IMG/VR virus record: IMGVR_UViG_2537561618_000005
Strand: one strand, 5' to 3'
Length of the DNA: 13,194 bases
Source: a virus
Lineage: Duplodnaviria > Heunggongvirae > Uroviricota > Caudoviricetes
This document shows, piece by piece, positions 11,548 through 13,194 of this stretch (positions are counted from its first letter, which is position 1; each line of letters begins with the position of its first letter). Under the pieces are notes generated by a model, which saw only the letters and a list, made by a program, of their open reading frames with translations, was not told where the DNA came from and did no database searches. The translations under genes were made by a program, and so were the position numbers.

Positions 11548-11598
11548 GTTTAACGGACACTCCTTCCTGAAATAGAATGGCATCAGAAGGAGCTAATA

Positions 11599-11618
11599 AT
11601 GAGCAGAAAAACCCAACG
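11599..11618 (+). pseudogene. Start of an unidentified gene (AAGGAG RBS plus ATG, MSRKTQR...) truncated after about 7 codons by the IS629-like element
   Basis: AAGGAG at 11587-11592, 6-nt spacer, ATG at 11599. The frame runs into the IS left end at 11619 and terminates 15 codons later inside the IS. Confidence 0.3.
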
Positions 11619-11672
11619 TGAACCGCCCCGGGAATCCTGGAGACTAAACTTCCTGAGAAAGAGGTAAACAGG

Positions 11673-11999
11673 ATGACTAAAAATACTCGTTTTTCCCCCG
11701 AAGTCCGTCAACGGGCAGTCCGTATGGTTCTGGAAAGTCAGGGCGAATATGACTCACAATGGGCGACAATTTGTTCCATTGCCCCAAAGATTGGCTGTAC
11801 GCCGGAGACTCTGCGTGTCTGGGTTCGCCAGCATGAGCGGGATACCGGGGGCGGTGATGGAGGGCTCACCACCGCTGAACGTCAGCGTCTGAAAGAGCTG
11901 GAGCGTGAAAATCGTGAACTGCGCCGCAGTAACGATATCCTTCGCCAGGCTTCCGCTTATTTTGCGAAGGCGGAGTTCGACCGCCTCTGGAAAAAATGA
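11673..11999 (+). CDS. IS629-like OrfA (HTH / leucine-zipper transposase N-terminal protein)
   Basis: [108 protein letters not shown] matches IS629/IS1203 OrfA from memory. Confidence 0.9.
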
Positions 12000-12882
12000 T
12001 GCCACTGCTGGATAAGCTGCGTGAGCAGTACGGGGGCGGACCGCTATGCAGCGAACTGCATATTGCCCCGTCAACGTATTACCACTGTCAGCAACAGCGA
12101 CATCATCCGGATAAACGCAGTGCCCGTGCGCAGCGCGATGACTGGCTGAAGAAAGAGATACAGCGCGTATACGATGAAAATCACAAGGTATACGGTGTAA
12201 AGTCTGGCGTCAGTTGTTACGGGAAGGTATCAGAGTGGCCAGATGCACTGTGGCACGTCTCATGGCGGTTATGGGACTTGCCGGTGTTCTCCGGGGTAAA
12301 AAGGTCCGTACGACCATCAGCCGGAAAGCCGTTGCCGCAGGCGACCGCGTAAACCGTCAGTTCGTGGCAGAACGACCTGACCAGCTGTGGGTGGCTGATT
12401 TTACTTACGTCAGCACATGGCGGGGCTTCGTCTATGTGGCGTTCATCATTGATGTGTTTGCCGGATACATCGTGGGGTGGCGGGTCTCATCGTCCATGGA
12501 AACGACATTCGTGCTGGATGCACTGGAGCAGGCGTTATGGGCCCGTCGACCGTCCGGCACGGTCCATCACAGTGATAAAGGTTCTCAGTATGTATCGCTG
12601 GCCTACACACAGCGGCTTAAGGAAGCCGGATTACTGGCATCAACAGGAAGTACAGGCGACTCGTATGACAACGCGATGGCGGAGAGCATCAATGGTCTTT
12701 ACAAAGCGGAGGTAATACACCGTAAGAGCTGGAAAAACTGTGCAGAAGTGGAACTGGCCACACTAACGTGGGTGGACTGGTATAACAATCGACGATTGCT
12801 GGAAAGGCTGGGCCACATCCCTCCGGCAGAAGCAGAAAAAGCTTATTATGCTTCCATCGGAAACGATGATCTGTCAGCCTGA
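11996..12882 (+). pseudogene. IS629-like OrfB transposase (DDE) with an internal frameshift near 12197-12202
   Basis: Frame 2 (11996-12352) encodes [68 protein letters not shown] and then nonsense. The OrfB sequence resumes in frame 1 from about 12199 ([24 protein letters not shown]...DFTYV...[10 protein letters not shown]...[15 protein letters not shown]...). The frame change is consistent with a 1- or 4-nt deletion. Confidence 0.75.
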
Positions 12883-12924
12883 GTTCACAGATAAAACACT
12901 CTCCAGGAAACCCGGGGCGGTTCA

Positions 12925-13194
12925 GTTGTCGAACCAGTAGTCGAGACACTGGGCGACCGTCATGGAGTTCTCCACCTTCTCTTCAAAATAAGTGCGTGGA
13001 TCCGTTCCTGAGAAATAGAGCTTTCGCAAGTCAGCAGTGATCTGTCTGGCATCCTTCAAAGACAGGGATGGGTATCGACCAAGCCCAAGTCGATTAGGCT
13101 TGCCATGCCAGCGATAGCGGTACTGGAACTGGATGACCCCCTTCGGTGAAATTCGTACGCTGAGGCCATCAGCATCAGCCACTTCTTGTGGGCC
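12925..13194 (-). pseudogene. Tyrosine recombinase (P4-type phage integrase) N-terminal arm-binding domain fragment; 5' end beyond window, 3' end truncated at the IS629-like junction
   Basis: Minus-strand translation ...GPQEVADADGLSVRISPKGVIQFQYRYRWHGKPNRLGLGRYPSLSLKDARQITADLRKLYFSGTDPRTYFEEK... fits the integrase N-terminal pattern (GL.V.V.PKG.K.F.YRYR..GK..R..LG.YP..SL..AR). The frame is open to the window edge. The terminating TGA is supplied by the IS terminus (reverse complement of 12922-12924). Confidence 0.7.

Follow-up and report, generated by a model that had tools for sequence, protein, structure and literature searches.

An IS629 copy links two truncated phage genes in a Shigella flexneri prophage remnant

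At the right end of the DNA analysed here (hereafter the window, 13,194 bp), insertion-sequence scars are stacked one upon another, and a copy of IS629 links a broken ejection-protein gene to the opening quarter of an integrase gene that is likewise broken. We consider this joint to be probably a non-functional product of rearrangement, which would have arisen by recombination between inverted IS629 copies, that is, by an inversion. The window is identical in sequence to an entire draft contig, AFHC01000013.1 (13,194 bp), of the S. flexneri assembly GCA_000213475.2, and the integrase gene runs off the window because the contig ends there. Both ends of the window lie in repeated DNA, an IS66-family transposase fragment on the left and the integrase fragment (int') on the right (Table 1). 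From position 9817, the order is the truncated ejection gene (gp16', +), an IS600 remnant (IS600'), IS629 (+) and int' (-).

Table 1. Features of the window, with positions counted from its first base
Feature	Position	Strand	Remarks
IS66-family transposase fragment	1-357		DDE_Tnp_IS66, E=1.8e-36; cut by IS2
IS2 copy, 1331 bp	358-1688		interrupts the IS66-family fragment
Phage-like ORF, 95 codons	1734-2021	-	without Pfam match; right of IS2
IS911/ISEc52-like element	2045-3292		abuts the coat gene, cut at 3293
gp20-type ejection protein gene, intact	8485-9816	+	PF16928 Inj_translocase, E=1.1e-67; 98.5% DNA identity to Sf101
gp16-type ejection protein/lytic transglycosylase gene, 5' 63% (gp16')	9817-11534	+	codons 1-572 of 911; SLT domain
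IS600 5' end, first 84 bases (IS600')	11535-11618	+	left inverted repeat plus first 6 codons and 2 nt of orfA
IS629 (IS3 family), 1306 bp	11619-12924	+	IRL 11619-11643, IRR 12900-12924
IS629 orfA	11673-11999		HTH_Tnp_1 domain
ALIL pseudoknot, programmed -1 frameshift signal at the IS629 orfA/orfB overlap	11954-12070	+	Rfam RF01497, 116 bits, E=3.9e-30
IS629 orfB	from 11996		rve domain; 4-bp deletion after 12196 breaks the frame
Tyrosine integrase fragment, Sf101/phage-2851 type (int')	12925-13194	-	codons 18-107 of 392 aa; arm-binding domain alone

The broken genes and the insertion sequences between them

A Pfam profile search recovered the SLT domain in gp16' (E=1.9e-25), and the protein is identical at 567 of 573 positions (99%) to residues 1-573 of the 911-aa Sf101 lytic transglycosylase, gp13. 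Nucleotide similarity to Sf101, phage APC_JM3.2 and the prophage of E. coli F1005 stops at 11534. In Sf101 numbering the gene has by then reached codon 572 of 911, and its C-terminal 339 residues have been lost. The last codons of the 576-aa ORF (573-576) and its TGA stop (11545-11547) are supplied by IS600. The original prediction had taken the gp16 homolog to be complete, which it is not; both the truncation and the IS600 fragment had gone unnoticed. The sequence from 11535 to 11618 is 100% identical to the start of the annotated IS600 of E. coli EJN001, and only these first 84 bases, rather than a full 1.26-kb IS600 with both inverted repeats, are present in the window. In S. flexneri CP026871, the remainder of this IS600 is found after an IS629 that is flanked by an ACG/ACG duplication.

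The next element had been described as IS629-like and as beginning at 11548. Its identity as IS629 was correct, but its start was 71 bases off and lies at 11619. The terminal inverted repeats of 25 nt are 92% complementary, and the ALIL pseudoknot matches RF01497 over its full length. Its identity with other S. flexneri copies is 99.5-99.9%, whereas that with the E. coli O157 element (IS629/IS1203) is 95.6%. The 4-bp deletion in orfB is defined relative to the O157 element, in which orfB is intact. All the S. flexneri IS629 copies examined are 1305-1306 bp long, which is the length expected if all of them have the deletion; if it is common to all, these copies would require transposase in trans, or would have lost their mobility. 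The deletion therefore argues against autonomous transposition of the window copy. The element is flanked by ...CCCAACG on the left and GTTGTCG... on the right. Since ACG and GTT do not form a 3-bp target duplication, this IS629 should be regarded as a recombinant copy.

To the right of the IS, on the opposite strand, lies a 3'-truncated integrase gene, as had been proposed from the sequence, and 89 of its 90 residues are identical to residues 18-107 of a 392-aa integrase. Both the integrase similarity and the P4-type N-terminal domain were recovered by PF13356 (Arm-DNA-bind_3; E=2.7e-17, residues 4-68). The stop codon is indeed provided by the terminus of the IS, the final three bases of which (12922-12924) read TGA on the minus strand, and codons 1-17 fall beyond the contig end. 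The catalytic domain with the active-site tyrosine (PF00589), which corresponds to residues 204-366 in full-length homologs, is absent from int', and a search of the window to the left of IS629 for the 3' part of the integrase gene revealed nothing similar. This result, and the missing target duplication, bear out the earlier view that an integrase gene beside a late ejection gene is a non-native layout resulting from rearrangement. No working gene is expected in this 1.65 kb: gp16' lacks its C-terminal 339 residues, orfB is frameshifted, and int' retains the arm-binding domain alone.

In the left part of the window, the IS911/ISEc52-like element is in an unexpected orientation: five other S. 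flexneri genomes or contigs have, at this junction, a copy that is its exact reverse complement. The element cannot be turned round relative to its flank by recombination inside the IS, and its orientation may correspond to an independent insertion or to an assembly problem; it invites doubt about the handling of repeats in the assembly. The tail-needle gene (6612-7409; Sf6-type knob) has 265 codons, as opposed to 282 in 2457T-type relatives, and the gp7 gene (7867-8475) has 202 codons, as opposed to 230. The short forms of these two genes mark a sub-lineage in common with CP034060 and CP130061.

The integrase fragment at the cusB and sbcB loci

Among 5,426 complete E. coli genomes, 579 have an integrase gene that matches the 270 bases of int' at 99-100% identity, and matching integrases are also encoded by Sf101, phage 2851, several Stx phages, HK544 and mEp234. 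In the two genomes examined (O145 RM12581 and YY76-1), the integrase gene lies beside sbcB, where a lambdoid or P22-like prophage ends, and the gene of strain F1005 likewise adjoins sbcB. The attP of Sf101, with the core CGTAATCGTGAAA, is located just upstream of int, and the corresponding attB lies in the 5' end of sbcB (PMC4159516). The same core was found beside sbcB in the related loci. A tRNA or tmRNA attachment site beside the start of int is typical of P4-like/Arm-DNA-bind_3 integrases, although it is not universal, and such a gene had been predicted just beyond the window. However, ARAGORN scans of the window and of five loci reaching 4-10 kb past the start of int were negative for tRNA and tmRNA genes, and the start of int in the related loci adjoins sbcB or cusB. 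The tRNA attachment site was therefore rejected.

The exact 107-aa product of int' corresponds to IntA (Q7UDG7/AAP16001) in the S. flexneri 2457T annotation. The right junction, IS629 followed by GTTGTCGAACC-int', is nucleotide-identical in more than 20 S. flexneri loci inside cusB, where the order is the cusB 5' part, attL, int', IS629, 1,075 bp of an Sf6-type tailspike gene, IS2, the attR arm and the cusB 3' part. In 2457T, this remnant is located at about 491.7-496.2 kb of AE014073, and cusB is split into pieces of 257 aa and 167 aa. The att junctions are CGTGGTCGCGAAA-GAGG (attL) and CGTAATCGCGAA-TTCAGG (attR). As judged from these junctions, with 10 of the 13 core bases matching, the cusB remnant is a site-specific integration of an Sf101/2851-type prophage at a secondary site, and we found no mention of this integration in the literature searched.

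The same junction between int' and IS629 is also present next to sbcB, in the draft contig AFGZ01000047 and in the closed genomes CP182556 and CP178302. The int' of the window is identical (270/270 nt) to the copies at both loci, sbcB-linked and cusB-embedded (2457T), and its SNPs were therefore uninformative as a guide to the locus beyond the contig. At the cusB-linked and sbcB-linked loci, IS629 occupies the same int nucleotide (12924/12925 in the window), with int' alleles common across loci, and a separate IS629 insertion in the same orientation is found 26 bp away in E. coli O157 strain 9000. Common ancestry with this O157 insertion was rejected, since the junctions are 26 bp apart and the IS copies are 95.6% identical. 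The recurrent position of IS629 in int points to an insertion hot spot or to conversion between prophages. It is very unlikely that codon 107/108 is a sequence-specific IS629 hot spot and that the 107-aa arm-binding fragment, which is widely retained, has been kept for interference with the integration or excision of incoming Sf101- or Stx-type phages through the same arm sites.

Exchange of flanks between IS629 copies and the origin of the joint

The junctions found in related genomes demonstrate that S. flexneri IS629 copies exchange their flanks. The left parent is intact in CP026871 (IS600'-ACG/IS629/ACG-IS600''), and LR213452 has a simple IS629 insertion between adrA and psiF, with an ATC/ATC duplication. 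CP034060 has both reciprocal hybrids, adrA-ATC/IS629/ACG-IS600'' and IS600'-ACG/IS629/ATC-psiF, bracketing a prophage remnant, and in most other genomes gp16'-IS600'-IS629 continues into psiF-phoA. The whole P22-like remnant of CP034060 (in the region 3,894,065-3,915,216; IS600''-tailspike'-oacB-SfIV-type int'-IS-coat'...gp16'-IS600') lies between two direct IS629 copies. The outer flanks of this pair, ATC and ATC, are the duplication left by one IS629 insertion in the adrA-psiF interval. A circle with one IS629 would seem to have recombined into the adrA-psiF copy, and this bears on the position of oacB upstream of adrA. In other S. flexneri genomes, gp16' is linked via IS600::IS629 to an Sf101-type tailspike end and to oacB beside an SfIV-type int-xis, and, in genomes with this gp16'-oacB linkage, int' is found in a separate remnant with an Sf6-type tailspike piece. 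The suggestion that the integrase belongs to a neighbouring island is a viable alternative, as 2457T-type genomes hold int' in a separate remnant inside cusB.

Both parental junctions are present in strain 2003036 (CP007037), with a gp16'-IS600'-IS629 copy at about 242,991-244,296 (+) and an IS629-int' copy at about 483,767-485,072 (-). About 240 kb separates these two IS629 copies, which form inverted repeats, and one exchange between them, an inversion, would therefore give the exact order and strands of the window. The gp16 structural module and this integrase are combined in Sf101, APC_JM3.2 and the F1005 prophage. In Sf101 and the intact F1005 prophage of E. coli, int and gp16 share a strand, with about 4 kb between them across attP in the phage map and about 31 kb in the prophage, so a single deletion cannot explain the joint, whereas an inversion can. 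Of the deletion or inversion initially envisaged, the inversion is therefore retained and plain deletion is not.

We infer that recombination between these parental junctions was the route to the joint. Insertion of IS600, or its deletion, would have taken place in the gp16-type gene of a P22/Sf6/Sf101-like prophage, and IS629 would have inserted into IS600 at orfA codon 7, duplicating ACG. RecA-type homologous recombination between this copy and another IS629, one located at codon 107/108 in an integrase gene of the Sf101/2851 type, would then have produced one hybrid IS629 with IS600'/gp16' on its left and the integrase 5' fragment on its right. The event would be an inversion because the two parental copies are mutually inverted. 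If the partner was the copy in the cusB remnant, in the arrangement of 2457T and 2003036, about 240 kb would have been inverted, and a reciprocal junction, CATGGCATCGCCTTTGGTGTTATCC/IS629/ATCAGGTATCAGGCGGC, would be expected together with inverted psiF-cusB DNA. If it was the sbcB-linked copy, the inverted segment would be larger, or would lie within the prophage.

The SNP pattern of the window IS629 is that of the psiF-adjacent copy of CP034060, through position 12873, and none of the six SNPs typical of the cusB-locus copies is present. No chimeric pattern marking a crossover was visible inside the element, all of which is of psiF-adjacent type. The last 51 bp are therefore the only place left for a crossover with a 2457T-like partner, unless the partner copy differs in this lineage. 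The exact joint was sought through exact-protein matches to gp16', coat', gp7, IS629 orfB' and int' and through scans of viral and genome contigs, covering all the large contigs recovered with the 576-aa gp16' or the 107-aa int', about a dozen of which exceed 1 Mb, as well as the 5,426 complete E. coli genomes, and no second instance was found.

A joint unique among all the genomes examined might also be produced if the assembler had entered IS629, a multi-copy repeat of 1.3 kb, at the gp16'-IS600' flank of one copy and left it at the int' flank of another. The contig would lend itself to such an error: it begins in an IS66-family fragment, crosses IS2, the IS911-like element, IS600' and IS629, and stops 270 bp past IS629. 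Furthermore, its IS629 is of the psiF-adjacent type right up to the end of the IS, and the orientation of its IS911-like element is matched by no other genome. Nevertheless, we consider an assembly artefact unlikely. In sibling assemblies of the project, these IS copies are traversed in agreement with closed genomes (AFHB01000018 and AFHD01000005 with CP007037, and AFHB01000005 with AE014073), and a right flank made of unique psiF/phoA DNA would be expected to carry the contig on for tens of kb, as in the siblings. A stop inside int' is instead expected if int' and the att arm are present twice (at cusB and sbcB), as in AFGZ. It is also quite improbable that the joint arose by a deletion between direct IS629 copies, or by an IS629-adjacent deletion, in an ancestor in which int' was already inverted and downstream of gp16. 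Direct IS629 repeats clearly do recombine in this lineage, as CP034060 and LR213452 differ by exactly such an insertion or deletion, and prophage remnants are heavily deleted everywhere. However, at least one earlier inversion would be needed, since int and gp16 are co-oriented in intact relatives, and the required intermediate was seen in none of the genomes examined.

A transposase-mediated event at an integrase hot spot, in which IS629 would have independently targeted int codon 107/108, for example by intramolecular transposition from the IS600 site, is highly doubtful. Such an event would be consistent with the presence of IS629 at the same int nucleotide at two chromosomal loci with different int alleles, with the independent insertion in the same orientation 26 bp away in O157 strain 9000, and with a window IS629 uniformly of one parental type; on reading the sequence, the target GTCGAACCAG also appears similar to the IS end TGAACCGCC. 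However, orfB is frameshifted in the window copy and, judging by their length, in all the S. flexneri copies examined. IS3-family elements move by copy-out/paste-in via a circle, and this route gives simple insertions with duplications, not joints without them. The identical junction is already present in many genomes, which makes recombination the simpler explanation. Recombination between inverted IS629 copies is the reading that we prefer.

Comparison with known systems and significance

A close intact counterpart is Sf101 (KJ832078), an Sf6-like serotype-converting podovirus, the gp14-gp16 region of which is 98% identical in DNA to positions 7409-11534 of the window and the integrase of which is 99.6% identical to positions 12925-13194. 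In Sf101, both genes are intact and on the same strand, with the tailspike gene, oacB and attP between them, whereas in the window both are broken, on opposite strands and 1.4 kb apart across IS600'/IS629. The IntA locus of 2457T has the same junction between int' and IS629 and the same 270 nt as the window. However, on the other side of IS629 it has an internal piece of an Sf6-type tailspike gene, within a remnant between attL and attR in cusB, in the place of IS600'/gp16'. In E. coli O157:H7 strain 9000, the same sbcB-prophage integrase gene carries an element of the same IS family (IS629/IS1203) in the same orientation, but there the insertion is a simple one, displaced by 26 bp and flanked by the two integrase halves, and the element is 95.6% identical to that of the window and has an intact orfB. 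An IS629-mediated inversion around SHI-O has been reported between S. flexneri 5b 8401 and S. flexneri 2a 301 (Nie et al. 2006, PMC1550401). It involves the same element, species, proA-adrA-psiF neighbourhood and proposed mechanism; the likeness is one of element, region and mechanism, and this precedent speaks for an inversion in the window. Every part of the joint is a known element, with 95-100% identity, and rearrangement by IS elements in this way is textbook material for Shigella; this is not a new system.

For annotation, these results mean that two products, the 576-aa 'transglycosylase' and the 'Arm DNA-binding protein', represent pseudogene fragments, and that the contig ends in a sequence with two chromosomal locations. 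Two by-products are worth noting, namely the secondary attachment site in cusB and the recurrence of IS629 at one position in the integrase gene. The joint is an ordinary result of IS-driven genome shuffling and raises no new biological question. The locus is a compact example of nested IS600/IS629 elements shuffling prophage remnants among the sbcB, cusB and adrA-psiF regions of S. flexneri, and this shuffling bears on the chromosomal position of the O-antigen gene oacB.
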